Assembly (NCBI GenBank): GCA_963805975.1
Contig: CAWDVR010000002.1
Span: forward strand, 1,024,001-1,088,000
Reading direction: 5' to 3'
Source: an uncultured Acidobacteriota bacterium
Lineage (GTDB): Bacteria; Acidobacteriota; Thermoanaerobaculia; Multivoradales; SZUA-115
Length of the DNA stretch: 64,000 bases
Part shown: piece by piece, positions 34,532 through 63,018 of the stretch
Position numbering within the stretch: the stretch's first letter is position 1
Layout of the letters: each line of letters begins with the position of its first letter
The notes under the pieces: generated by a model
Seen by the model: the letters and a program-made list of their open reading frames with translations, nothing else
The model's database searches: none
What the model was told of the DNA's origin: nothing
Made by a program: the position numbers and the translations under genes

Positions 34532-36049
34532 ATGAGCGGAACGCACGACGAAAGCGGTCCGATCGCGGGCCGAACCAGCCAGACGGCCGAGATCTCGGCC
34601 GATCTGGCTTCCCCCGACCTTCTCGACCCGGTTGACCACCGCGCGCCGCTGATTCTCGGCGCGCCGACCTTCCACGCCATCACCGAGGCGGTAGCGCGGC
34701 CGCTCGAGCGGCCGCCCACGCGCGGCTGGTGGATCTGCTTCCTCACCTCCCTCTCGATGCTGGGCCTTCTGGGCGTCGCCATCGCCTGGCTGTTCTGGGA
34801 GGGGATCGGCGTCTGGGGCCTCAACAACCCCGTCGGCTGGGCGTTCGACATCACCAACTTCGTGTTCTGGGTGGGCATCGGCCACGCCGGCACGCTGATC
34901 TCGGCGATCCTCTTCCTCTTCCGCCAGAAGTGGCGGACCTCGATCAACCGCTCCGCGGAGGCGATGACCATCTTCGCGGTGATGTGCGCATTGATCTTCC
35001 CCGGCATCCACGTCGGCCGGCCCTGGGTGGCGTACTGGATGTCGCCGCTTCCCAACCAGATGGACATGTGGCCGCAGTTCAGAAGCCCGCTGATGTGGGA
35101 CGTCTTCGCGGTCTCGATCTACGGCTCGGTCTCGGCGCTGTTCTGGTTCGTGGGCCTGGTGCCGGACCTGGCCACCATCCGCGACCGCTCGACCGGCCTG
35201 CGGCGCAAGATCTTCGGCGCGCTGGCCCTGGGCTGGCGCAGCTCGGTGCGCCACTGGCAGCACTACGAGAAGGCGTACCTGGTCCTCGCCGGGCTGGCGA
35301 CGCCGCTGGTGCTCTCGGTCCACTCCATCGTGTCGATGGACTTCGCGACCTCCCAGCTCCCCGGCTGGCACACCACCATCTTCCCGCCCTACTTCGTCGC
35401 CGGCGCCATCTTCTCGGGCTTCGCGATGGTGGTGACGCTGATGGTGATCACGCGCAAGGTGTTCGGCCTCGAGCAGGTGATCACCATGAAGCACTTCGAC
35501 TACATGGCCAAGATCATGCTCGTCACCGGCATGATGGTGGGCTACGCCTACAGCCTGGAGTTCTTCATCGCCTGGTTCTCGGGCAGCGCCTACGAGCTGT
35601 TCACGTTCAAGAACCGCGCCTTCGGGCCCTATGCCTGGGCCTACTGGACGATGGTCTCCTGCAACGTGCTCTCGCCGCAGCTCTTCTGGTTCAAGAAGGT
35701 GCGCTCGTCCCTGCTGTGGCTGTTCGTGCTCTCGATCTTCGTCAACGTCGGCATGTGGTTCGAGCGCTTCGTGATCATCGTCACCTCGCTGCACCGGGAC
35801 TTCCTGCCGTCCTCCTGGTTCTACTTCACGCCGACGTTCTTCGACATCGCGACGATGATCGGCAGCTTCGGCCTGTTCTTCACCATGTTCTGCCTCTTCG
35901 TGCGCTTCCTGCCGATCGTCGCCACCGCCGAGGTGAAGACGGTGCTGCCACAGGCGGCGGCGCATCCGCTGGTGGCGCCGAGGATCGAGCACGACGAGCC
36001 TGCCGTCGTCGGCCGGCGTTCGGATCTCGCCCGAGGAGAAGCCGGCTGA
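34532..36049 (+). CDS. actC: Alternative complex III subunit C (NrfD/PsrC family)
   Basis: [71 protein letters not shown]. Start is 34532 or 34496. Confidence 0.93.
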
Positions 36050-36606
36050 TGGCCCTGTTGCGGCCCAGCCTGCCGGCCGGCGACCGCTTCGGCGCTCTCG
36101 CCGAGTACGCCTCGCCCGCGGCGCTCTACCATGCCTGCGAGGCGGTGCGCGACGCCGGCTACACGCGCTGGGACGCGCACACGCCGTTCCCCGTGCACGG
36201 GCTGGACCGGGCCATGGGCCTCAAGGCCTCGCGCCTCCCTTGGGTGTCGCTCGTCCTGGCGCTCGGCGGCGGCCTGGCCGGCATGGGCCTCCAGGGCTGG
36301 GTGAGCACGACCGCCTACCCGCTGGTGATCAGCGGCAAGCCGTTCTTCAGCTGGCCGGCGTTCGTTCCCGTGACCTTCGAGCTGGCGGTGCTCGGCGGCG
36401 CCCTGGGCGCGGTGTTCGGCATGTTCGCCATGAACCAGTTGCCTACCCTGTACCACCCGCTCTTCGGCAGCGCGAGCTTCGAGCGGGCGAGTGACGACGG
36501 CTTCTTCATCTCGATCGAGTCCTGGGACCCCCAGTTCGACGCCGACCGGACGGTCGAGTTCCTGCGCCGCCTGGGAGCCACCCAGGTCGAGCTGGTCGCG
36601 AGCTAG
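36049..36606 (+). CDS. actD: Alternative complex III subunit D (DUF3341)
   Basis: DAHTPFPVHGLDRAMG, YPLVISGKP, PAFVPVTFEL. Confidence 0.92.
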   Translation: MALLRPSLPAGDRFGALAEYASPAALYHACEAVRDAGYTRWDAHTPFPVHGLDRAMGLKASRLPWVSLVLALGGGLAGMGLQGWVSTTAYPLVISGKPFFSWPAFVPVTFELAVLGGALGAVFGMFAMNQLPTLYHPLFGSASFERASDDGFFISIESWDPQFDADRTVEFLRRLGATQVELVAS

Positions 36607-36618
36607 GCGAGCCTCCCG

Positions 36619-37845
36619 ATGAGCGATCACGGCCACCACCCGCACCCGCCCGTGCTGCGCGCCTCGTCGCTGTGGCTGCCGCCGGACCATGCCTGGCGTC
36701 GCCTGCCGAAGCTCGGCCTGGTGCTGGCGGTGCTGGGGCTCGGCGGCAGCCTGGCTCTCGGGCTCCTCTCCCACGACGGGCGGCACCAGCTCTGGCACTC
36801 CTGGCTCGTGGGCTCGCTCTTCGTGCTCTCCGTGGCCCTGGGCGGCCTCTTCTTCGTGCTCGTCCACCACGCCACGCAGGCGGGTTGGAGCGTGGTAGTG
36901 CGGCGGATCGCCGAGAACGCCATGGCCACGCTGCCCTTCCTGGCGCTGCTGTTCGTGCCACTGCTCTTTGGCATGCACGACCTCTTTCACTGGAGCCATG
37001 CCGACGCGGTGGCCGCGGACCCGTTGCTCGCCCACAAACGGCCCTACCTCAACGTGCCGTTCTTCCTGATCCGCACCCTGGCCTACTTCGGCATCTGGTC
37101 GTTTCTGGCGATCTGGTTCGGCCGGCTGTCCCGGCTCCAGGATCAGACCGGCGACCACGAGCTCACCCGGCGGATGCGGCGGGCGAGCGCGCCGGGGCTG
37201 CTGCTCTTCGCCATCAGCGTGACCTTCTTCGCCTTCGATTGGGTGATGTCGCTCGACCCCCACTGGTACTCGACGATCTTCGGGGTCTACTTCTTCGCCG
37301 GCTCGACGGTCGCCTTCTTCGCCTTCCTGGCACTGGTGGCTCTCGGCCAGCGGCACATGCTCGCCCGGGTGCTGAACGCCGAGCACCTGCACGACATCGG
37401 CAAGCTGCTCTTCGCCTTCGTCGCCTTCTGGGCCTACATGGCGTTCTCCCAGTACCTGCTCATCTGGTACGCCAACCTTCCGGAGGAGACCGGCTTCTTC
37501 GCCCAGCGTCTGAACGGCTCGTGGCGGCCGGCGAGCGCGGTGCTCGCCCTCGGGCATTTCGTGGTGCCGTTCTTCTTCCTCCTGCCGCGCACCACCAAGC
37601 GCCACACCACCGCTCTGGCCGCGGCCTCGGTGTGGCTGCTGGTGATGCACTTGCTCGACCTCTACTGGCTGGTGATGCCGAGCCTCCATGCGGACGGTAT
37701 GGCGCCGAGCTTGCTCGATCTCGCGACGCTGATAGGCTGTGGCGGTGTCTTTCTGGCGGCTTTCGGTTGGTCCCAGAGCCGTCAGGCCTTGGTGCCGTTG
37801 CGCGACCCGCGTCTTCCGGAGTCGCTCACCTTCGAGAACGTTTGA
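36619..37845 (+). CDS. actF: Alternative complex III subunit F
   Basis: AGWSVVVRRIAE, KRPYLNVPFF, DWVMSLDPHWYSTIFG, HLHDIGKL, FSQYLLIWYANLPEE. Confidence 0.9.
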   Translation: MSDHGHHPHPPVLRASSLWLPPDHAWRRLPKLGLVLAVLGLGGSLALGLLSHDGRHQLWHSWLVGSLFVLSVALGGLFFVLVHHATQAGWSVVVRRIAENAMATLPFLALLFVPLLFGMHDLFHWSHADAVAADPLLAHKRPYLNVPFFLIRTLAYFGIWSFLAIWFGRLSRLQDQTGDHELTRRMRRASAPGLLLFAISVTFFAFDWVMSLDPHWYSTIFGVYFFAGSTVAFFAFLALVALGQRHMLARVLNAEHLHDIGKLLFAFVAFWAYMAFSQYLLIWYANLPEETGFFAQRLNGSWRPASAVLALGHFVVPFFFLLPRTTKRHTTALAAASVWLLVMHLLDLYWLVMPSLHADGMAPSLLDLATLIGCGGVFLAAFGWSQSRQALVPLRDPRLPESLTFENV

Positions 37846-37909: not shown

Positions 37910-38625
37910 ATGTCCAAGCACCTCAAGTCCCTGGCGGGCACCGGCCTAGCCTTTGCCCTCGCCCTCGCCACCAGCCCTGTCTTCGCCGCCGGCATCACCG
38001 GCACCGTCACCTACACCGGGAAGGTACCCACCCTGAAACCCCTCGCCATGGACGCCGACCCGGGCTGTGCCGCCAAGCACTCCGGCCCGGTGCCGAGCGA
38101 GGTGCTGGTGCTCGGTTCGGGCAACACCATGGCCAACGTCATGGTGCGGGTCAAGAACGCTCCCGCGGGCGGCACCGCCCCGTCGACGCCGGCGGTGATC
38201 GACCAGAAGGGCTGCCAGTACTCCCCGCACGTCCTCGGGATCATGGTCAACCAGACCTTGAAGCTCAAGAACTCCGACGGCGTGCTGCACAACGTCCACG
38301 CCCTGCCCAAGGTCAACACGCCCTTCAACATGGCGATGCCGGCCAACCGCACTCGAGGCGGACACCAAGTTCGGCAAGGAAGAGGGCATGTTCCTCGTCA
38401 AGTGCGACGTCCATCGGCTGGATGACCGCCTACGTCGGCGTGTTCTCGAACCCCTTCTTCGCGGTCTCGGGCAAGGACGGCAAGTTCTCGATCCCGAGCC
38501 TGCCGCCGGGCACCTACGAGCTCGAGGCCTGGCACGAGAAGCTCGGCGTCAAGACCGCCAGCGTGACGGTCACCGCGGACAAGCCGGCGACCGCCAACTT
38601 CGCGTTCGCCGCGCCGGGCGGCTGA
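37910..38625 (+). CDS. Secreted cupredoxin-like / carboxypeptidase-regulatory-like protein (two frameshifts near 38353 and 38414)
   Basis: GGAGG RBS, signal peptide, DQKGCQYSPHV, LHNVH, KCDVH.WM, and C-terminal LPPGTYELEAWHE. Confidence 0.75.
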
Positions 38626-38666: not shown

Positions 38667-40466
38667 ATGGCCACCACCGCGACCCAAGCACCAGCCCACT
38701 CCCACCACGGGAGTGGGCACCACGACGCTGCGCACGAGCACGCCCATCCCGACCTGGGCTTCTGGCGCAAGTACGTGTTCTCGACCGACCACAAGGTCAT
38801 CGGCATCTGGTATGCGGTGACCGGCCTGCTGTTCCTGTTCTTCGGCTTCTGCCTGGTGATGCTGATGCGCTGGCAGCTCGCCTTCCCCGGGCGGGCGCTG
38901 CCGATCATCGGCAACCTGCTCGGCGAGGCCCGCATGCCGGGCGGCGCCATGCTGCCCGAGTTCTACAACGAGCTCGGCGCCATGCACGGCACGATCATGG
39001 TGTTCCTCGGGGTCGTGCCGCTGGCGGTCGGCGGTTTCGGCAACTTCGTGCTGCCGCTCCAGATCGGCGCCCCCGACATGGCGTTCCCGAAGATCAACCT
39101 GGCGAGCTACTGGTCGTACTTCCTGGGCGGCGTGACCATGCTGGCGAGCTTCTTCGTGCCCGGCGGCGCGGCGCAGTCCGGCTGGACGTCGTACGCGCCG
39201 CTCTCGGTGATCGCCGGTGAAGGCCAGACGATGTGGCTCATCGGCATGATCTTCCTCATCACTTCCTCGCTGCTCGGCTCGATCAACTTCATCGTCACTA
39301 CGGTCCAGCTCAGAGCGCCCGGCCTCTCCTACTTCCGGCTCCCGTTCTTCGTCTGGGCGCAGCTCGTCACCTCGTTCCTTCTGCTCCTCGCCTTCCCGCC
39401 GCTCGAGGCCGCCGGCATCCTGCAGCTGATGGACCGGCTGGCCGGGTCCAGCTTCTTCATGCCCAGCGGCCTGGTGGTCTCCGGCCAGATAGCGGCCTAC
39501 ACCGGCGGCGGCAACCCGATCCTGTGGCAGCACCTGTTCTGGTTCCTCGCCCACCCCGAGGTCTACGTGCTGATCCTGCCGGCTTTCGGGATCGTGGCGG
39601 AAGTGATGGCCAACAACACCCGGAAACCGCTCTTCGGCTACAAGATCATGGTGCACTCGTTGTGGTTCCTGGGCTTCATGTCGTTCATCGTCTGGGCGCA
39701 CCACATGTTCTTCACCGGCATGGGCACGACGATGGCGGCCTTCTTCCAGACCACCACGATGATCATCTCGATCCCCTCGGTGGCGCTCCTGACCTCGCTC
39801 CTCATCTCGCTCTGGGGCGGCTCGATCCGGTTCAACACGCCGATGCTCTTCGCGCTCGCCTTCCTGCCGATGTTCGGCATCGGCGGCCTGACCGGCCTGC
39901 CGCTGGGCCTCTCGGCCGCGGACATCCCGCTCCACGACACCTACTACGTGATCGGGCACTTCCACTACGTGGTGGCGCCGGGCACCCTCTTCGCGCTCTT
40001 CGCCGGCATCTACTACTGGTTCCCCAAGGCCACCGGACGGATGATGAGCGAGCGCCTGGGCAAGCTCCACTTCTGGCCTTCGCTGATCTTCATCAACGGC
40101 ATCTTCATGCCGATGTTCATCCAGGGCCTGGCGGGAGTGTCGCGCCGCCTGTACGACGGCGGCGCCTCGTACGACTTCGCGCAAGAGGTGAGCCACTGGA
40201 ACGTGTTCATGTCCTACTCGGCCTGGGGCCTGGCGATCGCCCAGATCCCGTTCATCATCAACTTCTTCTGGAGCATCAAGCGCGGCCAGAAGGTGGGCGA
40301 CAACCCCTGGAACGCCACGACCATCGAGTGGGCGGCCCCGTCGCCGCCGCCGCACGGCAACTTCCTCACGCCGCCCGAAGCACACCGCGGCCCGTACGAG
40401 TACAGCGTGCCCGGACAGCCGCTCGACTACTCACCGCAGTACCAATCGGAACAACGGGCGAGCTGA
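38667..40466 (+). CDS. ctaD: Heme-copper oxidase subunit I, A1-type
   Basis: TDHKVIG, MHGTIM, APDMAFPKIN, HPEVY, WAHHMF, HDTYYVIGHFHYV, RR pair. Confidence 0.96.
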   Translation: MATTATQAPAHSHHGSGHHDAAHEHAHPDLGFWRKYVFSTDHKVIGIWYAVTGLLFLFFGFCLVMLMRWQLAFPGRALPIIGNLLGEARMPGGAMLPEFYNELGAMHGTIMVFLGVVPLAVGGFGNFVLPLQIGAPDMAFPKINLASYWSYFLGGVTMLASFFVPGGAAQSGWTSYAPLSVIAGEGQTMWLIGMIFLITSSLLGSINFIVTTVQLRAPGLSYFRLPFFVWAQLVTSFLLLLAFPPLEAAGILQLMDRLAGSSFFMPSGLVVSGQIAAYTGGGNPILWQHLFWFLAHPEVYVLILPAFGIVAEVMANNTRKPLFGYKIMVHSLWFLGFMSFIVWAHHMFFTGMGTTMAAFFQTTTMIISIPSVALLTSLLISLWGGSIRFNTPMLFALAFLPMFGIGGLTGLPLGLSAADIPLHDTYYVIGHFHYVVAPGTLFALFAGIYYWFPKATGRMMSERLGKLHFWPSLIFINGIFMPMFIQGLAGVSRRLYDGGASYDFAQEVSHWNVFMSYSAWGLAIAQIPFIINFFWSIKRGQKVGDNPWNATTIEWAAPSPPPHGNFLTPPEAHRGPYEYSVPGQPLDYSPQYQSEQRAS

Positions 40467-40475
40467 GGCCAGGCC

Positions 40476-41066
40476 ATGGAAATCCCCTACACCGTCGCGG
40501 AGCGGCCCGACACGGGCCTGAACAACGGCAAGATCGGCATCTGGCTGTTCCTCGCCTCGGAGGTCATGCTCTTCGGGGCGCTGTTTGCGACCTACCTGAT
40601 CATGCGCATCGGCGCCGAGACCTGGCCCCGCGGCGACTCGATCCTCAACGTGCCGCTCGCCACCATCAACACCGCCGTGCTGATCACCTCGAGCGTCACC
40701 ATGGTCATGGCCTGGGCGTCGCTCAAGCGCCACGACTTCGGTAAGTTCCGCCTGTTCATGGGCCTCACGGTACTGGCCGGCTTCGGCTTCCTGCTGATCA
40801 AGTACTTCGAGTACTCGGCCAAGCTCCACCATGGCCTGCTGCCCTCGACCAACACCTTCCTGGCGATCTACTTCACGCTCACCGGCCTGCACGGCCTGCA
40901 CGTCATCGGCGGCATGGTGGTCAACGGCTACCTCTGGGGCCCCGGCTCCAAGCTCTGGAAGACCAACCCCGAGCACTTCACCAACCGGGTGGAGAACTCG
41001 GGGCTGTTCTGGCATTTCGTCGACCTGGTGTGGATCTTCCTGTTCCCGGTCCTCTATCTTCTCTAG
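40476..41066 (+). CDS. ctaE: Heme-copper oxidase subunit III
   Basis: WLFLASEVMLF, LTGLHGLHV, FWHFVDLVWIFLFP. Confidence 0.95.
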   Translation: MEIPYTVAERPDTGLNNGKIGIWLFLASEVMLFGALFATYLIMRIGAETWPRGDSILNVPLATINTAVLITSSVTMVMAWASLKRHDFGKFRLFMGLTVLAGFGFLLIKYFEYSAKLHHGLLPSTNTFLAIYFTLTGLHGLHVIGGMVVNGYLWGPGSKLWKTNPEHFTNRVENSGLFWHFVDLVWIFLFPVLYLL

Positions 41067-41096: not shown

Positions 41097-41394
41097 ATGG
41101 ACCACCACGCTGACCTCGACCGCCACGTCAAGACCTACATCCTCGTCTTCGTGACCCTGCTGGTTCTGACGATCGTCACTGTCGCCGTGGCGCGGCTGCA
41201 CCTGCCCGTCGCCGGCGCGGTGGCGGTGGCGCTGATCGTGGCCTCGATCAAGGGCGACGCTGGTCGCCGGCTTCTTCATGCACCTCCTCCACGAGCGCAA
41301 GCTCATCTACTGGGTGCTCGGGTTCACCGTGGCCTTCTTCCTCGCAGTGCTGCTGATGCCACTCTGGACGCACTTCGATCCGATCACCAATTGA
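41097..41394 (+). CDS. ctaF: Heme-copper oxidase subunit IV (frameshift near 41252)
   Basis: YILVFVTLLVLTIVTV. Removing one G in AAGGGCG gives IKATLVAGFFMHLLHERK. Confidence 0.85.
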
Positions 41395-41404
41395 GGGGCT
41401 TCCC

Positions 41405-41602
41405 ATGAACCTCAAGAGCTTCCACGTCGTCTTCATCGTCTGCGCGATCGCCCTCGCCTACCTGCTCGGCGCCTGGGTCCTCCAGAGCCCGGCGCTCACC
41501 GGGGCGCCGCGGCTCGCGGCCGCGGCCGGTGCGTTCGGCGCGGGCCTGGCGCTGGTCGCCTACGGGGCTTGGTTCCTGCGCTATTCCCGGAGACGAGGAT
41601 GA
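41405..41602 (+). CDS. Small two-helix membrane protein
   Basis: MNLKSFHVVFI...; GAGG RBS; lies inside the cox operon. Confidence 0.7.
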   Translation: MNLKSFHVVFIVCAIALAYLLGAWVLQSPALTGAPRLAAAAGAFGAGLALVAYGAWFLRYSRRRG

Positions 41603-41886
41603 GCGGGCGGCTGCGCCCGCTGGCGCTCCCTGCCGGCGCGCTGCTGGCCGCTGCGCTCTGGGCGGTGCCGGCGATCGCGTGCACCGTGTGCTACGGCGCT
41701 GACGCCAACGCCTCGCCGCTCCTCACCGCCGCAAGGCTGGGGGTCTTCCTGCTCCTCGGGATCACCGTCGCGTTGCTCGGCGGCTTCGCGAGATTCTTCT
41801 TCTATCTGCGCAACCGTGCCCGGCAAGTCGAGAGCGAGAGCATCGCCGCGGAGTGGGCGCAACTGCAACGGAGTGCCTCGTCATGA
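41599..41886 (+). CDS. Small membrane protein with a signal peptide followed by CxxC
   Basis: AVPAIACTVCYG then a TM helix; ATGA overlaps at both ends. Confidence 0.7.
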   Translation: MSGRLRPLALPAGALLAAALWAVPAIACTVCYGADANASPLLTAARLGVFLLLGITVALLGGFARFFFYLRNRARQVESESIAAEWAQLQRSASS

Positions 41887-42683
41887 CCAGTTGGCTACCC
41901 CCGATCGCCTCGGAGCACGGCCCCCAGATCGACAGCGCCCTCACCTGGGTTCACTGGCTGATGCTGGTGCTCTTCGTCGGCTGGATCATCTTCTTCGTCG
42001 TCGCCCTCTGGCGGTTCCGGCGCTCGGCGAACCCGGTGGCGAGCTATACCGGCGCCACCAGCCACGCCTCGAGCTGGCTCGAAGGCGGGGTGGCGGTGGC
42101 CGAGGCCATCCTCCTGATCGGGCTCTCGATCCCGCTCTGGGCGGACCGCGTGGCCGAGTTCCCGCCGGAGAGCGAGTCCGTGGTGGTGCGCGTGGTGGGC
42201 GAGCAGTTCGCCTGGAACGTGCACTACCCCGGCCCTGACGGCACGTTCGGCCGCACGGCGATCGACAAGATCGACGTCCAGAGCAATCCCCTGGGCCTCG
42301 ACCGGACCGACCTCGCGGCCCAGGACGACGTCACGACGGTGAACCAGCTCTACCTGCCGGTGGGTAAGCCGGTGATCGTCCACTTGAGCAGCAAGGACGT
42401 CATCCACAGCTTCGGCCTCCCGGAGATGCGCATCAAGCAGGACGCCGTGCCGGGCATCGTCATCCCGGTCTGGTGGAAGCCCACCGTCACCACCGCCGAG
42501 ATGCGCCAGCGCCTGGGCAAGCCCGAGTTCGTCTACGAGATCGCCTGCGCCCAGCTCTGCGGTATCAGCCACGCCAGCATGCGAGGCTTCGTCACCATCC
42601 AGGAGCCGGCCGAGTTCCAGGCCTGGATGGACGAGCAAGTGGCGGCCCAAGCCTCGACCGGGGAAGACGCGATCTGGGAGTAG
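41883..42683 (+). CDS. ctaC: Heme-copper oxidase subunit II (CuA)
   Basis: EQFAWNVHYPG, SKDVIHSF, KQDAVPG, CAQLCGISHASM. Confidence 0.94.
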   Translation: MTSWLPPIASEHGPQIDSALTWVHWLMLVLFVGWIIFFVVALWRFRRSANPVASYTGATSHASSWLEGGVAVAEAILLIGLSIPLWADRVAEFPPESESVVVRVVGEQFAWNVHYPGPDGTFGRTAIDKIDVQSNPLGLDRTDLAAQDDVTTVNQLYLPVGKPVIVHLSSKDVIHSFGLPEMRIKQDAVPGIVIPVWWKPTVTTAEMRQRLGKPEFVYEIACAQLCGISHASMRGFVTIQEPAEFQAWMDEQVAAQASTGEDAIWE

Positions 42684-43889: not shown

Positions 43890-45215
43890 TCACCCCGCCC
43901 CAAAAACCTTCGGCGTCGGCATCCGCGCACGGATCTCTTCCAACACGGTGGCGGTCACCAGGTCCACGCCGTTCTTCGCGCACCATCCCTCGACGGCCCG
44001 CGTCACCATGCCGCGCACGAAGGCCGGGATGCGCTGCATGCGCTCGCGGGCGTCGGGCTCCCAGGTGAGGGTGATGCTCGCGGCCTGGCCGTACTCGACG
44101 GCGGCGGGTCGCAGGCGGTCCACTGCCGCCTGGAGGGTGCCTGGCTGGTGGGTACAGAGGGGATCCTCGGCCATCAAATCGCCGGTCATGCCGTAGGCTC
44201 GTGCCCGGCAGCCGCCGCACAGGCTCTTGAGCTCGCAGGGCCCGCAGCGCCCGCCGAGGTGCTCGCGCTGGCGGATGCGGGTGAAGAGCTCGGAGCTGTC
44301 CCACAGCTCGCGCAGGCCCGTGTCTCCCAGGTTGCCGGCGAAGAGGGGCAGATAGGGGCAGGGCGTGACGTCGCCGTTGGGCCGTATCCCTAAGTAGTGG
44401 GTGCCGGCCGGGCAGCCTCCGGCGCCGCCGCCGAAGCTCTTCGGAAAGGGTGCCGGCGAGTCCGACGACAGCAGCGTGCGGACGAAGTGCGGCGCGCACT
44501 TGGCGTTGACCAGCATCTTCGAGGACCAGCGCCGCTGGATCTCGGCCAGCTCCCCCAGCACCTGGTCGTACTCGGCGGGATCGAGGTCGCTGACGAAGGA
44601 ACCCCGGCCGCTCGGCACCAGGAAGTAGAGGTTCCACACCTTGGCGCCAAGCTCTTCGTGGGCGAAGGCGGCGAGCGCCTCGAGCTCGTTGCGGTTGTGC
44701 GCGCCCACCGTGGTCTGCACGATGAACGGCAGGCCGGCGCGGGTGAGGATCTTCGCGCCCTCGACCGTGTTCTGCCAGGCGCCGCGCACGCGGCGGAAGG
44801 TGTCGTGGCGCTCCGGGTCGAGCGCGTCGAGCGACAGCGCAAGGCCGCGCACGCCTTCGGCCAGGAGGATCTGCGCCAGGTTCTCGGTGATCTTGACGCC
44901 GTTGGTGCCGACCACGACCCAAAGATTCTGCTGCACGCCGTAGCGGATGATCTCGACGATGTCGCGACGCAGCAGAGGCTCGCCGCCGGTCAGGATGGTC
45001 ACGCACTCGGGAGCGAAGGCGGCGATCTCGTCGATCACCCGGTAGCACTGCTCGGTCGAGAGCTCACTGCGGTCGGCGAACGCCGGGCTCTTGACCTTGC
45101 CGGGGCCGGCGTCCAGATAGCAGTGCTCACAGGCGAGGTTACAGCGGTAGGTGAGGTTCCACGACACCACGTAGGGCCGCTCGAACCCGCCCGCGCTCCC
45201 GACGAGATCGGCCAC
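43890..45215 (-). CDS. AhbC/AhbD/NirJ-like radical SAM-SPASM enzyme with C-terminal PCP_red-like domain
   Basis: SWNLTYRCNLACEHCY, LTGGEPLLR, SPASM CPAG..CPY..CGPC...CGGCRARAY..DPLC; tail LTWEPDARERMQRIPAFVRGMV. Confidence 0.88.
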   Translation of the reverse strand: MADLVGSAGGFERPYVVSWNLTYRCNLACEHCYLDAGPGKVKSPAFADRSELSTEQCYRVIDEIAAFAPECVTILTGGEPLLRRDIVEIIRYGVQQNLWVVVGTNGVKITENLAQILLAEGVRGLALSLDALDPERHDTFRRVRGAWQNTVEGAKILTRAGLPFIVQTTVGAHNRNELEALAAFAHEELGAKVWNLYFLVPSGRGSFVSDLDPAEYDQVLGELAEIQRRWSSKMLVNAKCAPHFVRTLLSSDSPAPFPKSFGGGAGGCPAGTHYLGIRPNGDVTPCPYLPLFAGNLGDTGLRELWDSSELFTRIRQREHLGGRCGPCELKSLCGGCRARAYGMTGDLMAEDPLCTHQPGTLQAAVDRLRPAAVEYGQAASITLTWEPDARERMQRIPAFVRGMVTRAVEGWCAKNGVDLVTATVLEEIRARMPTPKVFGAG

Positions 45216-53597: not shown

Positions 53598-55315
53598 GTG
53601 CTTGGACCTCTCCGTTGTCCTGGTTGCCCTGCCCGCCGGCAAGCTCTCGAGAGTTCCGGCGCCGCACCCACAGCGACCAGCAGGATCTCGACCGCCAGCA
53701 CCGCCACGGCGGCCCGCAGCATCGGCCAGACCGGCGACGGGGTCTCTCGCGGCATGGTGTACAAATACATCCACTGCGTCAAGCCCCGCTTGTTGCCGCG
53801 CTCGCGCTGGTGCCGTCCCAGAGCGAGAAGGCGACGGGAACGTACTGCCCCTCGGCGAAGGTCACGCTGCCGCTGCCGCGTAGCGCACGCTTCAGGATCA
53901 CCGACCACTCGCCGCGGTCGTAGCTCGCCACCGCCGCTCACGTCCTCGCCCTCGATCACGGTCAGATTGTCGCTTCCCGCGCCAGCGTAGCGTTGCACCA
54001 CCTTCGTCGCCAGGTCCACGAACCAGAGGTCGACCGGGTTCTGCGCGTCGCCGAACAGGAAATAGGGCTTGCGGATACCGCTCGGAAGCTGGGCCGGGAG
54101 CTGGATCGCGACCGCGTCGGAGAACTCGGTCTCGGGGCTGGTGGCCGCGGTGCCGCCGCCCTCGTCGCCCCAGAAATCGCCACCGGCGCCGTCCGCGGCC
54201 GGGGCTGCGTCCGCACCCCAGAAGTCCCCACCTTCGGCAGCGGCGGCCGCGGGCGCGGCTTCGTCACCCCAGAAGCCGCCCTCGCCTGCTGCCGGCGCGG
54301 CGGCGGCCTCGGCCTGGTCCTCCTCGGGCGGAACCACCAGGTCGGGCGCGTTGCGGCCCGCGACGTCGGCCCGCATGTCGTGCCAGGTGAGCAGGAAGGC
54401 GATCTCCCTGGCGTTGTAGACCGCTCGTACGGTGATGCCGTTGGCCGACGGATGGAACGCGCGGCCCGGCTCGGTGATCTGGCCGACGACCGGGAAGTAG
54501 GCCGGCGGCGCGGTGGCGAACGTTTCCTCGCCGCGCTCGAGGTCGATCTCGTCGGCCGTCCACTGGACCTGCAGCAGCTCGGAGTACGAGGGCGCATCGC
54601 GGGGATCGAGCGAGACGATGAAGTCCACCAGCTGCCAGCGCTGCTCGTCGGTGAGCGACTCGGCGAAGGACGGCATGGGCGTGCCGTTCATCCCGGTGGT
54701 GAAGGTGCGGTAGATGTCCTCGCGGGTCGGGCCGCCACGGTAGGTCCAGCGCTTGGTGAGGTCGGCAGGCCGGATCGAATGGTCCCAGTCGTCCTTCAAC
54801 GTGGGCGCCGAGGTGCCGTCGCCGCGCCCGAGCTCGCCATGGCAGGCCCCGCAGCCGATCTCGACGTAGACCTGCTTGCCTTTCTCGGCCGACTCCGTCG
54901 AGAACGACGGCGCCTTCGGGATGGTGAGCGCCGTGGGCTTGCGCTCCGGGTTCGCGAAGTCCGGCGAGAAGGACTTGACGGCGGCGATGAGCTGGTTGAT
55001 CTGCTCCTCGGAGAGGTGCTTCCAGCCCGGCATCGAGGTGTAGGGCATGCCCTCGCGCAGGATGTGCTGCAGGTCCTCGTCGGTGGGGAGCGCGCCGCTC
55101 GGCGTGTGCCGGACCTTGAACTTGGCCGAAGTGAAGTCGCGCGGGCGCGGCACCAGCCGCGGCGCCGCGATCCCTTGGCCGTCGCCCTGCTCGCCGTGGC
55201 ACTGGGAGCAGAGCTTCTGGTAGAGCTCTCCGCCGGGCGGGTTGTCCTGGGCAGAGGCCCCCGGCACCAGGAGCAAGGCGAACCCGAGAGCCGCCGCGAA
55301 CCGCACCCCCGTCAC
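53590..55315 (-). CDS. Periplasmic diheme cytochrome c plus EB_dh/DOMON-like domain and C-terminal membrane anchor (about 3 frameshifts at 53650-53940)
   Basis: Signal peptide, CSQCH, CGACH, VRAVYNAREIAFLLTWHD, FSDAVAIQLP, KPYFLFGD, VAFSLWDG..ERGNK. Confidence 0.8.
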
Positions 55316-56136
55316 TCGTGCACCTCCTCGCGCGCCCGCGGCTGCTGCTCCGAGAAATCGTAGAGGAACAGGATCACGTCCCACATCTCTTCCTCGGTGA
55401 GGAACTTCTCCCACGCCGGCATGGCGGTGTCCCAGGGGCCGGCCTCCTCGGGCAGGCCGGGGCCGCCCTTGCCGATGCGCCAGAAGAGGAAGGACTCCTG
55501 CAGCAGCGCGATGGCGCCGCCATCCGCGAAGTTGGTGGGGATCGGGTTCAGGCCGTGCGCGAACATCCCGTCGCCCCGCATCGCGTCGCCGTGGCAGTAG
55601 AAGCAGTTCTGGTAGTAGACCCGCCGGCCGTTGGCCAGGTGGCCGGCGAAGGCGGTCGGGTCGCTCTGCTCGAGCGGGCGGTAGGGATTGTCGAGCTTCA
55701 CCAGGTCGAACTGCTTGTCGTGCACCGTGATCGAGTCGGGCGGCGCGGGGTGGATCGTGCGGCCGAAAGCCGGCGCCTCGAGCTTGACGTTCATGCGCCG
55801 GTAGACCCCGAACGCCACCAGCGCCGGGATCAGCAGGACGACCGCGTAGAGCAGCGGGCGCCGCCGGGGCTCGAGGCACAGGCGCACCAGCGGCCCGGTG
55901 AACGCCTGCAGCCGCTCGCGGCTGGAGGTGACGTAGGCCACGGTCGCCAGGGTGACGATGCCCATGTAGAGCGAGATCACCGACTGCGGCACCGGGACCT
56001 TGAACCCGAAGCGCAGGAAGACCCAGACCGAGAACCAGGTCACCACGGTCCACAGGAACGAGCCGGCGCGGCGCTGGCGCAGCAGGAACTGCACGGCAAG
56101 GAGCGGCAGCACCACCCAGAGGACGATCGGGTTCAT
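55312..56136 (-). CDS. Membrane-anchored monoheme cytochrome c
   Basis: N-terminal hydrophobic helices, CFYCH, distal Met in AMPAWE. Confidence 0.85.
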   Translation of the reverse strand: MNPIVLWVVLPLLAVQFLLRQRRAGSFLWTVVTWFSVWVFLRFGFKVPVPQSVISLYMGIVTLATVAYVTSSRERLQAFTGPLVRLCLEPRRRPLLYAVVLLIPALVAFGVYRRMNVKLEAPAFGRTIHPAPPDSITVHDKQFDLVKLDNPYRPLEQSDPTAFAGHLANGRRVYYQNCFYCHGDAMRGDGMFAHGLNPIPTNFADGGAIALLQESFLFWRIGKGGPGLPEEAGPWDTAMPAWEKFLTEEEMWDVILFLYDFSEQQPRAREEVHE

Positions 56137-56180: not shown

Positions 56181-56753
56181 TCAGTGGCTGGGGACCGGGG
56201 CGGGTGCCTCGGCGCCAGCCTCACCGCCGGCCGGGGCCGCCGCGGGGGCGCCCGCCGCCACACCGGCGCCGCCGGCCTGCCAGGGCAGCTTGGTCTCCAG
56301 AGTGACCGTGGTGGTCCCGCCGAGGCTCTGCAGGTAGGCGATGACGGCGAGGATCTCGTCGTCGGTCAAGCCGATCGGCGGCTTGCTGATCGCTGGCATG
56401 CCGGGGTTGAAGCCCGGCACGATGAACTTGTCCGGCTCGTAGAGCGACTGCGCCAGGTACTCGACGTCGGAGAGGCCGGCGATCCGGGTCGCGGCGCGGG
56501 CGCCGATGCCCTCGAGGTCCGGGAAGCGCAGCGCTCCCGACTTGCCCACCGTGTGGCAGGTGAAGCACAGGCCCTTGCCGTCCATGATCTCGCGGCCGAC
56601 CTTGAGCATCTGCTCCGGCGTCATGTCCTTGCTGAGCACCACCTCCGCGGGCGGATGCACTTCCTTCTGCGGCACCAACTGGCCGACATACGTGTAGAAG
56701 CCGGTCGTGGCGACCGTCAGCGCGGCGATGCGCAGGCTCACGGGGACCTTCAC
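56181..56753 (-). CDS. Monoheme cytochrome c
   Basis: N-terminal anchor, CFTCH, YLAQSLYEP..IVPGFNPGMP. Confidence 0.85.
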   Translation of the reverse strand: MKVPVSLRIAALTVATTGFYTYVGQLVPQKEVHPPAEVVLSKDMTPEQMLKVGREIMDGKGLCFTCHTVGKSGALRFPDLEGIGARAATRIAGLSDVEYLAQSLYEPDKFIVPGFNPGMPAISKPPIGLTDDEILAVIAYLQSLGGTTTVTLETKLPWQAGGAGVAAGAPAAAPAGGEAGAEAPAPVPSH

Positions 56754-58632
56754 GCGACCGCTCCCAGGTCCGTGGAGCTCGGCCCAGGGGGCTCGCCGGG
56801 GGAGGAGAGCTCACCTTGGGCTCCCAGTCCTTCTTGCCGCCCAGGCTGGCGAGCCAGAACACGAAGCCGATCAGCAGGAAGAAGATCAGCACGGTCACCG
56901 AGACCACCTGGGTGGCAAAGCCCAGCGTGGGGGTGAAGGCGTCCACCGAGGTGTCGCGGATGACGCCGTAGACGTGCCAGTGCTGGCGCAGGCCCGAGCG
57001 CACGTAGCCCATCAGCCCCATCAGCCAGGTGAAGGTGACGGCGATGAAGATCAGCACGTACTGGGAGATGGGCGCGATCTGGCCCCAGCGCGGCTCGCCG
57101 GCCTTCTTGGCGTTCCTGAACATGAAGACGTCGATCACCGTCACCGCCACCATGGCGAAGAGCACCGACAGCACCTGCGGCACCGAGAACGCGATGCGCA
57201 CGGAAGCCTCGACGAAGTAGCCGTAGACACCGAGGAAGATCACGAACGCCGCGACGCCGACGAAGATGCCGAGCTGCGCGCGGTTGCCCGCCTTCGCCCA
57301 GGGGACGATCGGGGTCTTACCGCTGCGGCGATAGAGCAGGAAGCTCACGAAGGTGGTGAGGATCAGGATGTTGACCGCGGTGTTCTTGGCCGACATGACG
57401 CCCAGGAATTGCAGGGCGGGGTGGGCGGAGCCGCCCATCGCCCGAATCTCGGACACGGTCGAGATGATCGAGCGCGGCGTCGCCCAGACCGCGAAGCAGA
57501 GCGCCACCAGGATCAGCAGGTACTTGATGTACTTCTGGAACTTCTCGGCGCCGGCGATCCGCCCCATCCCCAGCCACAGGTAGTAGTTGGCGCCGAGGAA
57601 GAGGTTGCCGATCAGCACCGCCTGGATGATGAACAGCCAGGAGAAGGCGCCGCCCATCATGGTCAGCCCCAGCGTCTGGGAGTAGGCGTAGATCTCCTTG
57701 GCCAGGTAGTAGCCGGCGAAGGGCAGCGGCAGGAAGGCGCAGATCGCCACGAAGTTGCCGATGTAGCCCATCCAGTCGTAGTGGGCGCGCTCCTCGTCGG
57801 TCTTCGCCCCCAGGAACTTGAAGGCGGCGTAGGCCGCGGCCACCGAGCCGCCGAAGGCGACGTTGGCGATGATGCGGTGGACGTTGATCGGCATCCAGGT
57901 GTAGTTGCGCACCGCGTCCCAGGTGCTGATCAGCGCGCCGGTCTCGGAGATCCCCGACGGCGAGGTCATGAAGGTGAGCCAGGCGTTGGCGATCAGCATG
58001 ATCGCCGTGCCGACCACGTTCAGGCCCACTCCCAGGAGCAGGTGGACGCGGGGCGAGAACTTCCCCCAGCCGTAGTAGTAGGTGTAGAGGAAGAAGGCCT
58101 CGAAGAAGAACAGCCCGACGTAGGGCAGGAAGGTAGGCGAGAAGACGCTCACCAGGTAGGTGGTGAACTTCGGGTAGAGGATGATCAGCCCGAAGGTCAG
58201 CATCGCCCCGAACGTCGCGGTGAGCGAGAACGACACCGAGAGCAGCTTGGTGAACTCGTGCGCCAGGCGGTCGTAGCGCGGGTCCTTGGTGCGGTAGCCG
58301 ATGAACTCGATGATCAGCGCGAACATCGGCACGGCCAGCACGAAGGCGGCGAAGAGCAGGTGGAGCTGGGCCGCGATCCAGACCGCGACCCGGCTGCCGA
58401 TCCTGGGGAAGGCGCGGTACTCGGCGTCGACGTAGGGCTTCTCCCGGTCCTTCTGCTCCTGCTCGGCGTGCTGGTCGGCGAGCCCCTCGTCGCGCGGGGT
58501 CTCGACGACCTCGCCGCCCGGGGTGCTGGTGGGGGCCCGGTACTCCCGCTTGAGGAGCAGGGTCGAGACGCCGACGATCATCGCCAGCCCGAGGAGCGCG
58601 ACCAGGCCGGCGGCGAGACCCTTCTTCATCAT
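56750..58632 (-). CDS. Cytochrome bd-like (CydA-homologous) oxidase subunit without a canonical Q-loop (frameshift near the C-terminus, ~56790)
   Basis: AQLHLLF, FFEAFFLYTYYYGW, RVHL, ANAWLTFMTSP, NVHRIIAN, MGYVRSGLRQHW. Confidence 0.82.
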
Positions 58633-59300
58633 GGCGTCACCTGCTGCGGTGCAGCCGGGGTGGTCTCTGCCGGGACCGCGGGGGCCGGGGCGGCCGGGTT
58701 GGGAGCGACCTGGGGCGGCATGGTCCCGCCGGAGCGCTCGACGCGCCGCTGCTGGAGCGCACGCAGGTGCACGATGATCGCCCAGCGGTCCGCGACGGGG
58801 ATCGGGTAGCGGTACGCGGGCATCAGGCCGAAGCCGTTGGTGATGGTGTCGAAGAGCTGGCCGTCGGGCATCTGGCGCAGCCGGTCGTCGTGGAACGACG
58901 GGGTCGGCACCTTGCCGCGCTCGAAGAGGATGCCCTTGCCGTCGCCGTTCTTGTCGTGGCAGACCGCGCAGTAGATGTCGTAGCGCCGCGCACCGCGCTC
59001 GCGCACCGTCTCGTCCACCGCCATCGGCACCGCCATGACGAACGTGCCGGCGGCGTCCTTGCCCGTCCAGTAGGGGCCGTCGTCCCGCAGCTCGCCGCGC
59101 GCCACGGTGCCGGGAACCGGCGGCCGCATCGCCTTGCCGTCGTAGAAGAAGGCGCTCGCCGCCTGGGGCTCGTAGCGCGGCTGCACGTCCATGTTGGGAT
59201 TCATATGGATCGGCGGCCGGCTGGAGGTGCAGCCGCGGGCGCACCCGGAGAGGGCGAGGAGGACGAGACCCAGGGCCAGGTGCTGGCTGCGCCGGCTCAC
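58629..59300 (-). CDS. actE: Alternative complex III subunit E (monoheme c lipoprotein)
   Basis: Lipobox [41 protein letters not shown]. Confidence 0.9.
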
Positions 59301-59304: not shown

Positions 59305-62300
59305 CTAAGCCTCCACCAGCTCGGGATGGGGGTTGCGGATGCGCGCCAGGTAGCTGGTGCGCGGCCTGTTGCCGAGCTCGGCCAGCAGCACGTAGTTGCG
59401 GCTGCTCTGCTTGCGCGCGCTCACCTGGGCTTGCGGGTCGCGGATGTCGCCGAAGACGATCGCCTGCGTCGGGCAGGTCTGCTGGCAGGCGGTCTGCACG
59501 TCGCCGTCGGCCAGCGGGCGCTCGGCCATCTTGGCGTCGACCCGGGCGCGCTGGATGCGCTGCACGCAGTAGGTGCACTTCTCCATCACGCCGCGCGAGC
59601 GCACGGTGACGTCCGGGTTGGCCGCCAGCTTGAGCAGCTCGGGCGTGTCCTTGGTGTAGTTGAAGAAGTTGAACCGCCGCACCTTGTACGGGCAGTTGTT
59701 CGAGCAGTAGCGGGTGCCGATGCAACGGTTGTAGACCATCGCGTTCGAGCCCGTCGGCGGTGTGCACGGTCGCCGCCACCGGGCAGACCTGCTCGCAGGG
59801 GGCGTTCTCGCACTGCTGGCAGGGCATCGGCTGGAACACCATCTCCGGCGTCTCGGGCGGGCCGGAGAAGTAGCGATCGAGGCGCAGCCAGTGCATCTCG
59901 CGGCCGCGGCGCACCTGCTCGTGGCCGACGATGGGGACGTTGTTCTCGCTCTGGCAGGCGACGACACAGGCGTTGCAGCCGGTGCAGGAGTTGAGGTCGA
60001 TCGCTCATGCCCCACTGCGGGCCTTCGTCGTACCGGTGCTCGGCCCAGAGCGGCCCGCTCTTCGGGATCTCCACCATCTCGTCCGCGAAGTGCGGCTCGT
60101 GGCGCCATTCCTCGAGGGTGGCCTCGCGCACCACCGGCCGCCCCTCCATGCTGCCGTGATCCTGGGTCTGGGCGATGCGGTGCCGGTTGCCGGAGGCCTC
60201 GAGCGCCGCGCCGGAGACGAAGCCGAGCGCCGTGCTCGTGCGCAGCGGATAGACGTTGGCGCCGACCCCGCTGCCTACCCGGCCGGCCGCGGCCGCCCGT
60301 AGCCGAGGTGCACGACGACGGTCTCCTCGGCCTGGCCGGGCACGATCCACACCGGCAGCTCGACCTCGGCCTCGCCCAACCGCAGGCGGGCGCCGTCCTC
60401 GTTGGCCAGCCCCAGGCGCTCGGCGGTCTTCGGGGCGAGGAGAGCGGCGTTGCCCCAGGTCAGCTTGGTCACGGCATCCGGCAGCTCCTGCAGCCAGCCG
60501 ACGTTGGCGAAGCGCCCGTCGTGCACCGCCGGCGAGGCCCTGAACGACAGCTCGAGGCCCGCGGCAGCCGCGCCGGCCAGCCCTGCGGCAGCCTCGGCCG
60601 GCAGCGCCGCCACAGGCAGCGAAACGGGAGCCGGCGCACTCCCTGGCAGGAGACCGTCGTGGAGCACCTTGTTGAAGGCGTTGTCGAAGGCGGTCGCGGG
60701 CCCGGAGACCGGCAGCAGCGTCCTCCAGGTCTCCCGCACGAGATCGTACGCCGTCTTCTCTTCGCCGCTCGCCAGGAGGCCCAGCACCTCGATGGCGCCG
60801 TGGCCGCCGAACAGCGGCTCGATCAGCGGCTGCACCACGCTCACGGTGCCGTCCGCCGCCCTGCAGTCGCCCCAGGCTTCCAGGAAATGGGCCTCGGGAA
60901 GGTGCCAGTCGGCGCGCGCCGCGGTCTCGTCCGCCGCCAGCCCGAGGTGGACGACGTTCTCCACCTGCTCCAGGGCCGACTCGAAGGCGAGGTCCGCGGG
61001 CGCGTCGTAGACCGGGTTCCCGCCCAGGACGACCAGGGTCGAGACCTGGTTGGCGCGCAAGGCGGTCACCAGGGCCGAAAGCTCCGCGGTGCTGGGAGCC
61101 AGCACGTCGACCGGCTCGCGCAGCAGGACCGTCGTCCCCACGTTGCCGAGCGCGGCGTTGATCGCCAGCGCCAGAGCGTGCACCGAGGGTGGCTGATGGC
61201 GGCCCGCGATCACCAGGCTCGCCCCCCGGTTCGCCACCAGGTCCTTGGCCATGACTGCGACCCAGCGCATCGCTTGATCCGAGGCGGCCTCGGCGCCCGT
61301 GACGGGCAGCGCGAGCGGCACGCCGGCCGCGGCGAGCGCCCGGCCCAGCGCCAGCGCGAAGCTGCCGATCTGCCCGGCGGGCAGGGCCAGGCGGTGGTCG
61401 GCCATCGCTCCGGTCGTGGTGTGGGCGCTCTCGACCACCCACAGCCGGTTCATCGCGTCCTCTTCCGAGGCGAGCCGGCGGCCCGCGGCAAAGCCGCGAG
61501 CGTGGGCCACGGCGTTGCTCTCGGCCAGGAACAGGTCGGCATCCAGGCTCACCACCACCCGCGCCGCGCCGAGATCGTAGGTGGCCTTGAGCGGCCGTCC
61601 GGCCAGCAGCGCCGCGCCGGCGAGCGCGTTCTCGTCGCTGACCGGCTCCCAGGTGGCAGCGCGCATCAGGGGAAAGCGCTGGCGCAAGGCCGCGAACAGC
61701 CGGTACAGCGTGGGGGACGACGAAGGCGTGGCGAGCACCGCCAGCCCGGCGCCGCCGCTCGCAACGAAGCCGGCCTCGAGCGCCTTCCAGGCGGCTACGA
61801 ACTCGGCCCAGCTCTTGCGTATGGCGCCCGCGGCGGCAGTCGTTTGCAGCACGTGCTGCGAGCGGTCCGGATCGTAGAGGCCCAGGATCGAGGCCTGCAT
61901 CTGGGCGCTGGCGCTGCCGGCGGTTCCCGGATGGAGCTCGTTGCCCTCGATCTTGGTCGGCCGACCCTCGTGGCTCTCGACCAGCAGGCCGTAGCCCTCG
62001 ATGCCGAAGGGCATGGTCGTGGCGTAGCGTCTCGGGATGCCCGGCACCGTCTCTTCGGGGGGCGCCACGAAAGGCACGATGTTCTCGACCGGCCGACGGC
62101 AACCGGCGAGCCCGGCGAGCGACAGGGAAGCCCCCAGGAGCTGCACCAGCGACCGGCGATCGATGCCCTCCGGCAGCTCCGACGCGCCCTCGGGGAACTC
62201 GCGCTCGAGGAAAGCCCGTGACTCCGGGCTGTCGGCCAGTTGCTCGAGGCTGCGCCAGTGCTCCCGCTCGCGCCGCCGCGGTTCCCCGCCGCCCCCACAG

Positions 62301-62383
62301 CCGCAGGCCGAGCCGCAGCCGCCGGAGGCCGAGCCCGGCTCACCGCCGGCGAGCTCTTCCGTGGGCTCGATCACCGGTGGCAC
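59305..62383 (-). CDS. actB: Alternative complex III subunit B (molybdopterin-oxidoreductase-like plus Fe-S domain; frameshifts near 60293, 60003 and 59748)
   Basis: [17 protein letters not shown] Tat-like signal with [64 protein letters not shown]. Confidence 0.92.
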
Positions 62384-63018
62384 CCCGTGCAGTCGAGAGG
62401 CGGTTGCAGGCCCTTGGCCTCCTTGATGAGGGCCGCGGATTGGAGTTGGTCGCGGGGCGGGCTCCAGTCCATGTTCGTCACCTCGTCAGCGGGTCGCAGG
62501 TAGGGGTCGGGGTTGCGGTGACAGTCCAGGCACCAGCTCATGGAGAGCGGCTCGGCCTGCGCCACCTCGTCCATCTGGTCGATGCGCCCGTGACAGGTGG
62601 CGCAGCCGACCCCGGCGCGCAGGTGGGGCCGGTGGTCGAAGAACGCGAAGCCGGGCAGGTTGTGCACCCGCACCCAGCGGATCGGGCGCCCGCTGGTGGC
62701 GCTGTCGCGCACCACCGCCAGCGTCGCGGCATCGCGCTTCACCACGCGGTGGCAGTTCATGCACACCTCGGTCGGCGGCACCACCGCGACCGGCGCGCGG
62801 TCCACCGTGGCGTGGCAGTAGAGGCAGTCGATCCCGAGGTCCCCGGCGTGGAGCTTGTGGCTGTAGGCGACCGGTTGCACCGGCTGGTAGCCGACGTCGG
62901 TGTAGCGCGGGGAGAAGAAGTACCAGACCCCGGCCACCGCCAGGCCACCGACGACGACGCTCGCCGCGGCGATGCGCAGCGGCAATTCGTTGGCCCAGCG
63001 CGGGAAGATCTGCGCCAC
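62371..63018 (-). CDS. actA: Alternative complex III subunit A (pentaheme cytochrome c)
   Basis: TM helix, QPVAYSHKLHAG, five CxxCH motifs (CLYCH, CMNCH, CATCH, CLDCH, CTGCH), LSMSWC. Confidence 0.93.
   Translation of the reverse strand: MAQIFPRWANELPLRIAAASVVVGGLAVAGVWYFFSPRYTDVGYQPVQPVAYSHKLHAGDLGIDCLYCHATVDRAPVAVVPPTEVCMNCHRVVKRDAATLAVVRDSATSGRPIRWVRVHNLPGFAFFDHRPHLRAGVGCATCHGRIDQMDEVAQAEPLSMSWCLDCHRNPDPYLRPADEVTNMDWSPPRDQLQSAALIKEAKGLQPPLDCTGCHR

Follow-up and report, generated by a model that had tools for sequence, protein, structure and literature searches.

A probable second alternative complex III encoded in two halves, one in a heme-copper oxidase operon and one in a bd-like operon, in an Acidobacteriota genome

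Structural work on alternative complex III (ACIII) describes ActA, ActB and ActE as an electron transfer module and ActC, ActD and ActF as a membrane module; all cofactors are in A, B and E, and ActC, which has none of its own, relies on FeS1 of ActB (PMC5928083). With cofactors confined to those three subunits, each half depends on the other to function. Work on Flavobacterium johnsoniae proposes a branch at ActA/ActE (PMC8552683). In Chloroflexus aurantiacus, the ACIII-Cr operon carries actBEAG and cytochrome c oxidase genes without actCDF, and proteomics suggests that one CDF is common to two ABE sets (PMC9316378). The OR-N oxidases are recognized by CydA homology in the first helices, by the lack of heme c in CydA (which excludes OR-C) and by 10 or 14 membrane helices (bioRxiv 10.1101/2021.01.16.426971). 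Further general background is given in PMC9040806, PMC3534657, PMC9386147, PMC8076601, and PMC11214002. Here we describe a 64,000-nucleotide stretch (the window) of the genome of an uncultured Acidobacteriota bacterium (GCA_963805975.1, contig CAWDVR010000002.1, positions 1,024,001 to 1,088,000; the genome is called G000 below), in which genes for an ACIII are divided between two convergent operons, each containing genes for a different oxidase or oxidase-like protein. Window coordinates count from its first letter.

All six ACIII subunits are encoded in the window, but they are spread over two operons rather than forming a single actABCDEF cluster. Gene identities were assigned from open reading frame (ORF) translations, Pfam and NCBIfam profiles, and tblastn searches of the genome. 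A preliminary description of the sequence had placed actC-D-F at the head of a plus-strand heme-copper oxidase operon and actA-B-E at the head of a minus-strand bd-like operon; Pfam and ORF reading bear out both placements, with a gap of 20.8 kb between actF and actE and with every subunit present once in the window. Its argument that a single inversion cannot turn ABCDEF into ABE plus CDF is right as logic. The genes on which the argument turns are as follows.

34532..36049, plus strand: actC, quinol-binding NrfD-type membrane subunit (505 aa, intact; PF03916; E=1e-202 to 6f0k_C)
36049..36606, plus strand: actD (185 aa, intact; PF11821, 210 bits)
36619..37845, plus strand: actF (408 aa, intact; 42% identity to canonical actF, weak match to actC)
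38667..40466, plus strand: cox1, A1-type heme-copper oxidase (HPEVY) with Leu at the K-channel lysine position (profile and alignment)
41883..42683, plus strand: cox2, with CuA motif and without fused heme c (Pfam, tblastn)
62371..63018, minus strand: actA, pentaheme cytochrome c with N-terminal helix (5 CxxCH)
59305..62374, minus strand: actB, with twin-arginine translocation (Tat) RR motif, LAGC lipobox, and molybdopterin-like and Fe-S domains (TIGR04519 over cut-off; three single-base indels)
58629..59300, minus strand: actE, monoheme cytochrome c with lipobox LSGC (Pfam, 1 CxxCH)
56750..58632, minus strand: lone CydA-like (bd-like, OR-N-like) membrane protein, without CydB (frame break near 56780)
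56181..56753, minus strand: c190, membrane-anchored monoheme cytochrome c of 190 aa (Pfam)

The actF gene directly follows actD, with no actE between them. The split parts the membrane quinol module from the heme/Fe-S module, as the preliminary description held, and this boundary matches the ACIII modules given in PMC5928083. From the genomic evidence, we consider it probable that the window encodes a second ACIII of this organism, divided along its two structural modules into two operons, and that the halves likely make up one quinol:cytochrome c oxidoreductase.

The layout is conserved in relatives, which answers the synteny check that had been proposed for it. In an order-level sample of 41 genomes (G000 included), the CydA-like gene is present in 16, and all 16 carriers have actABE ahead of it (4 read across contig ends) and orphan actCDF ahead of a window-type cox operon. 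No true orphan actD was found in the 25 order-level genomes without the CydA-like gene; each actD there has actA about 5 kb upstream, except in G021, where the gene is cut by a contig end. In GTDB genomes, the best 80 of at least 478 confirmed CydA-like loci comprise 50 with full ABE directly upstream, 9 with partial ABE at a contig edge, 16 without an act gene, and 5 that are uninformative, and in none of these 80 is C, D or F inserted upstream of the CydA-like gene. The convergent two-operon layout recurs in many loci, and the closest named CydA-like loci among the matches listed are from Thermoanaerobaculia/Holophagales metagenome-assembled genomes (MAGs) of Acidobacteriota. In one family (f8), distances of 0.57, 0.74 and 2.47 Mb separate the halves; two of its genomes (G014 and G024) are single contigs and 99% complete. 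Searches of f8 found no bc1-type cytochrome b, only one Cox1 and one CydA-like protein (both window-type), another ActC-like locus without E and F, and no canonical-clade ACIII. With no bc1-type cytochrome b and a sole Cox1 and CydA-like protein, the split set is the only six-subunit ACIII found in f8 that could join quinol to the oxidases.

Two further arrangements were seen. One locus of G014 (L042, G014:C1:276000-295999) is a divergent actABCD-like cluster that has neither E nor F and in which unrelated genes separate actA from actB. In G082, actC-D-F lies co-directionally after the radical SAM gene, and the cupredoxin-cox operon is divergent from actA (L097 and L129); this arrangement, on two contigs, is possibly an intermediate layout.

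Evidence that the two halves belong together comes from their joint loss. We searched 50 of the best 80 genomes, 31 of the 50 with full ABE and 19 without ABE seen, the latter being the 16 without an act gene and 3 of the 5 uninformative ones. With a minimum identity of 75%, split-type ActC was detected in 27 of the 31 ABE genomes, or 28 when a frameshifted copy in G083 is counted, and in none of the 19 genomes without ABE, in which the best two matches (69% and 67%) belong to ABCDEF operons. Split-type ActA was likewise found in 0/19, two of these genomes having yielded no ActA at all and being perhaps incomplete. The lysine-less cox operon is nevertheless retained in 16 of these 19, beginning cleanly at the cupredoxin-like gene without actCDF ahead, although two have at most about 2 kb of upstream sequence. 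Because the cox operon is kept in 16 of the 19 CydA-like genomes without ABE/CDF, the joint loss takes a pair of deletions at separate sites, and these spare both oxidases. Mapped on the CydA tree, ABE loss amounts to 7 changes, 4 of which are forced by well-supported branches; close kin are not independent, so that a Fisher test exaggerates the association. Since relatives keep or lose both halves together, the halves are likely one enzyme.

ActC is closest to the Rhodothermus marinus ActC and keeps every one of the 30 residues described for the quinol site and proton path of that protein (PMC5928083), 29 of which are invariant across 25 split homologues; its H160, D190 and D270 correspond to the R. 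marinus quinol-site residues H139, D169 and D253, and the proton half-channels are kept. For the CydA-like protein, the profile match to a solved CydA (5doq_A, E=3e-16) covers only about the first 300 positions, the Pfam match spans positions 2-240 of 418, and the top 10 folds in a structure search are all CydA. Its equivalent of His19 is H91, present in 33 of 35 sequences, and it has no CxxCH, 12 hydropathy peaks, and about 13-14 long membrane-length helices in a model with a predicted local distance difference test (pLDDT) score of 68. At the channel glutamates, the first column is Tyr171 in 35/35 and the second is Glu178 (column read by eye). No CydB match was found among the window neighbor genes; with no CydB, no full-length CydA match and one channel glutamate replaced, the protein differs from canonical CydAB. 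Judged from its sequence features, it fits the OR-N description and the bd-like cluster of PMC3578206. Cox1 and Cox2 together retain the six His ligands, the HPEVY Glu and Tyr, the D-channel Asp, and the CuA subunit II. The K-channel position (K354 of Paracoccus denitrificans) is hydrophobic in 27 of 27 window-type Cox1 rows and Lys in 40 of 41 others; 19 further lysine-less Cox1 rows were found. The window-type lysine-less Cox1 also occurs in order-level genomes that do not have the bd-like gene (9 of 25, with one more match at 53%); because of this occurrence, the lysine-less Cox1 is not tied to the split ACIII.

The preliminary description had named complete canonical act operons elsewhere in the genome, supplying separate partners, as evidence that would count against it. 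A search for other copies turned up one such operon, which weakens the description's reading: tblastn and ORF reading revealed a complete, intact actABCDEF operon with SCO and caa3-type oxidase genes at C2:1103912-1116765, starting about 16 kb past the window end, with 39-64% identity to the window act copies. The split set is therefore the second ACIII of the genome. The canonical operon lies near the island in many relatives as well. It does not explain the halves away, because it belongs to a different clade and because 18 of the 19 genomes without either split half keep an ActC of another type, full-length or fragmentary.

The two ACIIIs are probably under different control, as the upstream sequences suggest. 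A palindrome, TTGTGA-N6-TCACAA, at C2:1103801-1103818 (L001/L002) precedes the canonical actA and is two mismatches from the Rex consensus. With up to two mismatches, a Rex-like palindrome is present in 19 of 25 canonical actA upstream regions, including that of this genome, and in none of the 83 split-half regions (58 ahead of actA and 25 ahead of actC); the argument for different control rests on this restriction to canonical actA. A Rex-type DNA-binding domain is encoded at C1:1282525. Upstream of the split actA is one candidate promoter element.

63130..63160, minus strand: TTGACC-N17-TAGACT, sigma70-like element upstream of actA, conserved in close relatives

This element was found in 11 of 58 split actA upstream regions. 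The two halves may be regulated independently of each other, as the preliminary description proposed. A motif search detected nothing common to actA and actC upstream regions, and an FNR-like pattern was uninformative in the window.

Phylogenies of the two modules (quick trees, LG+G4, 36 rows), with a phylum sample of the 20 best non-order ActC loci fetched, place the split copies together with a few contiguous operons in one clade (Shimodaira-Hasegawa-like approximate likelihood ratio test [SH-aLRT], 100), apart from the clade of the canonical G000 operon and sister to or beside an ordinary ABCDEF clade. The contiguous forms are an A-B-E-C-D-F-cox run in G134 and A-B-E-c-C-D-F in G007, G163 and G187, where c is a c190 homologue between actE and actC; no CydA-like match was found in the latter three. 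Both module trees nest the contiguous operons inside the split clade and give the same 12/7 division of 19 genomes, and an approximately unbiased (AU) test rejects a clade of split copies alone for ABE (p=0.003). We also considered a contiguous ABE(c)CDF operon as the ancestor, from which one break would give the split; it was set aside because the trees nest contiguous operons in the split clade, a placement with which the AU test agrees for ABE but not for CDF. The contiguous A-B-E-(c)-C-D-F operons are thus more likely rejoined, as far as the trees indicate, and the likeliest history would be a single ancient split, brought about either by block exchange or by two copies that lost genes reciprocally, and after it repeated co-loss and occasional rejoining. 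Two chimeric operons, L146 (G120:C1:827000-846999) and L147 (G182:C3:44000-63999), consist of canonical-side actA-B-E, caa3 genes and split-type actC-D-F in this order, and the canonical C, D and F are missing from the operon. These chimeras suggest that the ABE and CDF modules may be exchangeable.

Under the reading of the halves as one enzyme, ActC/D/F would oxidize menaquinol and move protons, while electrons would travel to the periplasm through the Fe-S clusters of ActB and the hemes of ActA and ActE. The c-type cytochromes of the bd-like operon, with c190 most likely accepting first, could then pass them to the lone bd-like protein; the lysine-less A1 oxidase could receive them as well, at its CuA subunit. 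We infer with strong confidence that the halves assemble into one complex and with moderate confidence that electrons are delivered to both oxidases; oxygen as the substrate of the bd-like protein would follow the prediction in the literature. As each operon lacks half of the complex, this second ACIII would form only with both operons expressed. A more far-reaching version is tentative and, taken as a whole, doubtful: one ACIII, made only when both operons are on (an AND-gate), would supply the lone bd-like protein, an oxidizer of cytochrome c instead of quinol, and the lysine-less A1 oxidase, neither of which has ever been purified; ABE and CDF could swap with the modules of the canonical ACIII-caa3 to give up to four ACIII isoforms per cell; and in f8 the split set would provide the whole quinol-to-oxygen route.

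Several observations weigh against the one-enzyme reading. A genome that also has a canonical ACIII-caa3 does not need the split set, whose halves could each combine with canonical subunits instead; the chimeras also hint that split and canonical modules could cross-pair. Three of the 31 ABE genomes (G062, G085, and G089) showed no matching CDF, their loci stopping at contig ends. Both oxidases persist without the split ACIII, which is hence not an obligate donor of either, and in G134 the halves are contiguous, yet the bd-like module is kept on another contig. For CDF, a tree that keeps the split copies together is not rejected (AU test, p=0.11). Patristic correlations are 0.75 for ABE-CDF, 0.70 for Cox1-CDF and 0.62 for CydA-ABE; co-phylogeny as proof of partnership was dropped, because the oxidases correlate almost equally, and with no specificity to ABE-CDF, linkage on one island accounts for much of the signal. 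Finally, actB is frameshifted in G000, and the island carries 9 frame-breaking indels in 19.5 kb versus 2 in 101 kb of 85 random genes.

The alternative that survives best, although we regard it as unlikely, is that the two halves serve the canonical ACIII as interchangeable modules, with the split ABE rerouting the canonical membrane module to the bd-like oxidase and the split CDF, together with canonical ABE, serving the lysine-less oxidase. The nearness of the canonical operon, here and in many relatives, and the canonical-ABE plus split-CDF operons of G120 and G182 (G182 having one ActC and one ActA match) would suit such an arrangement, and a similar use of common ActCDF by a second actBEAG set is proposed for Chloroflexus (PMC9316378). 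Single halves should then often persist, yet none of the 19 genomes without ABE keeps CDF, and f8 holds both halves where no canonical-clade ACIII was found. Module mixing may, however, occur on top of assembly into one complex.

Whether the island still functions in this genome is a separate matter. The actB indels are near 60292, 60001 and 59746, and the ActB Cys motifs that are intact in G001 lie in a frameshifted copy here; further frame breaks affect the CydA-like C terminus, the diheme cytochrome, the usp gene, the cupredoxin-like gene and cox4. It is quite unlikely, in our estimate, that the island is decaying into real pseudogenes because the canonical ACIII-caa3 suffices, which would leave the layout real and no longer functional here. 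Such decay would account for indels about 20-fold denser in island genes than in random genes, for the lack of indels in 13.4 kb around the canonical operon, and for the nonsynonymous/synonymous (N/S) counts of the broken genes, 114/142 versus 122/208 in the sister genome (p=0.07). It sits poorly with the lack of new stop codons in 5554 aligned island codons, an unchanged island-wide N/S (177/287 versus 217/343, p=0.85), and breaks that are mostly +1 insertions. Moreover, a genome-wide scan counted 166 frame switches with a patchy distribution (at least 4 in 9 of 181 bins), compared with 0 in 362 kb of G001, a pattern that fits consensus error, and the broken island genes are intact in G001 and G013. 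The island frameshifts are thus more likely assembly errors. Twelve frame switches fall in the last 31 kb of C2, and the consensus quality of the assembly is uneven.

It is very unlikely that ActA-B-E dock directly on the CydA-like protein to form a novel complex, in which that protein would replace ActC/D/F as the membrane anchor and leave actCDF with a separate role. The tight linkage of ABE and the CydA-like gene in 59 of 75 informative loci (among the best 80 of at least 478) invites this idea, and bd-like proteins have been speculated to act like ACIII (PMC3578206); still, the CydA-like module occurs without ABE in 16 of those 75 loci, ABE leave the CydA-like gene to rejoin CDF and are lost with CDF rather than with CydA, and ActC, for all its dependence on ActB FeS1 (PMC5928083), keeps its quinol site. 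Misassembly of the split is hardly conceivable despite the many indel errors in the assembly, because dozens of genomes from independent assemblies show the convergent layout and the junctions B-E, E-cydA and D-F as well. Taken together, the split is real, conserved and reciprocal, most likely with one ACIII in two halves.

The remaining genes of the two operons and of the island between them are listed below.

37910..38625, plus strand: secreted cupredoxin-like / CarboxypepD_reg protein (two +1 indels near 38347 and 38414)
40476..41066, plus strand: cox3 (PF00510)
41097..41886, plus strand: cox4-like gene, with an indel near 41255, plus two conserved small membrane ORFs
55312..56136, minus strand: membrane monoheme cytochrome c of 274 aa (Pfam)
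53590..55315 (low end approximate), minus strand: diheme cytochrome c with EB_dh-type domain (indels near 53939 and 53813)
51406..53597, minus strand: Usp-Usp-PCP_red protein (indels near 53211 and 53000)
48928..49845, minus strand: Mrp/NBP35 Fe-S carrier ATPase, a conserved island gene
43890..45692, minus strand: radical SAM/SPASM-PCP_red gene and small PCP_red protein, at the island end (position conserved in relatives)

The cupredoxin label is a prediction from the Cys/His/Met pattern. For the radical SAM/SPASM-PCP_red gene, the AhbD model is the best match, at a score below the cut-off. Three PCP_red proteins (radical SAM, small, and Usp fusion) and Mrp accompany the bd-like module in most relatives (43890-53597, minus strand in the window), and together they probably form a set devoted to the maturation of heme or a cofactor. 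A PadR regulator and an ADOP duplicated permease (45891-48866, minus strand; frame break near 47613) separate Mrp from the PCP_red gene; in relatives, e.g., at locus L025, Mrp and the PCP_red gene are adjacent without this insertion. A 349-aa ORF of lower GC content (42769-43818, plus strand) sits between the convergent operons; it had no Pfam or NCBIfam match, and an Atlas search returned hypothetical clusters only. No promoter or terminator was detected between the convergent operons. Genes hemE, hemB, hemC-D, hemL and hemA (27184-34356) are divergent from actC, and ferrochelatase (63217-64000) is divergent from actA, so that heme synthesis genes bracket the island.

If this reading holds, the locus would be natural genetic evidence that ACIII consists of two separable modules, whose genes can lie megabases from each other, come together again, and be mixed across clades. 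The OR-N-like bd-type proteins, with a substrate that has so far only been predicted, would gain a probable physiological electron donor. The locus would also serve as an annotation warning, as an "incomplete" actABE or actCDF cluster in Acidobacteriota would usually be half of a whole. The surprise is moderate, because neither the parts nor the module boundary are new and a comparable case across operons is in print. The literature within reach of our search, which did not extend to subscription papers such as Refojo 2013, to the journal bd-superfamily paper or to preprint supplements (the last two of which may already show gene context), holds no description of a reciprocal ABE-bd/CDF-cox split.

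Compared with the ACIIIs of R. marinus (6F0K; PMC5928083) and F. johnsoniae (6BTM), the split set has the same six conserved subunits, a pentaheme ActA, a monoheme lipoprotein ActE, a two-domain ActB, and genes beside oxygen reductases; it differs in that the genes are cut exactly at the module boundary, each operon has a different oxidase, and a second, canonical copy is usually present. The cytochrome oxidase of the plus-strand operon resembles the K354-less A-family heme-copper oxidases (bioRxiv 10.1101/2020.03.01.968255) in having a hydrophobic residue at the K-channel lysine with D-channel residues kept, but those are A2-type enzymes of iron oxidizers and their relatives, as far as that source describes them, whereas the enzyme here is A1 (HPEVY) and follows actCDF. 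The bd-like protein shares with the OR-N oxidases (bioRxiv 10.1101/2021.01.16.426971) and with the Nitrospina/Nitrospira/Kuenenia cluster (PMC3578206) CydA-like N-terminal helices, the His19 equivalent, the lack of a second cyd gene and of CxxCH, and mono- and diheme cytochrome c neighbors. Unlike the cluster of PMC3578206, it accompanies ACIII halves in Acidobacteriota and not a nitrite oxidation cluster, and its OR-N likeness is by description only. The ACIII-like actAB1B2CDE genes of Nitrospirales with OR-N5 CydAA' (PMC12342949) likewise lie directly upstream of a bd-like oxidase, but there C and D are kept, F is absent, B is split and two CydA paralogues occur, whereas the bd-like operon of the window has a single CydA-like gene, with C, D and F located elsewhere. 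In C. aurantiacus, an ABE module also stands apart from CDF and beside a terminal oxidase, and cross-operon assembly is proposed on the basis of proteomics; there, however, one CDF in a complete operon serves two ABE sets, whereas here an orphan ABE, adjoining a bd-like protein and not a heme-copper oxidase, and an orphan CDF are complementary.

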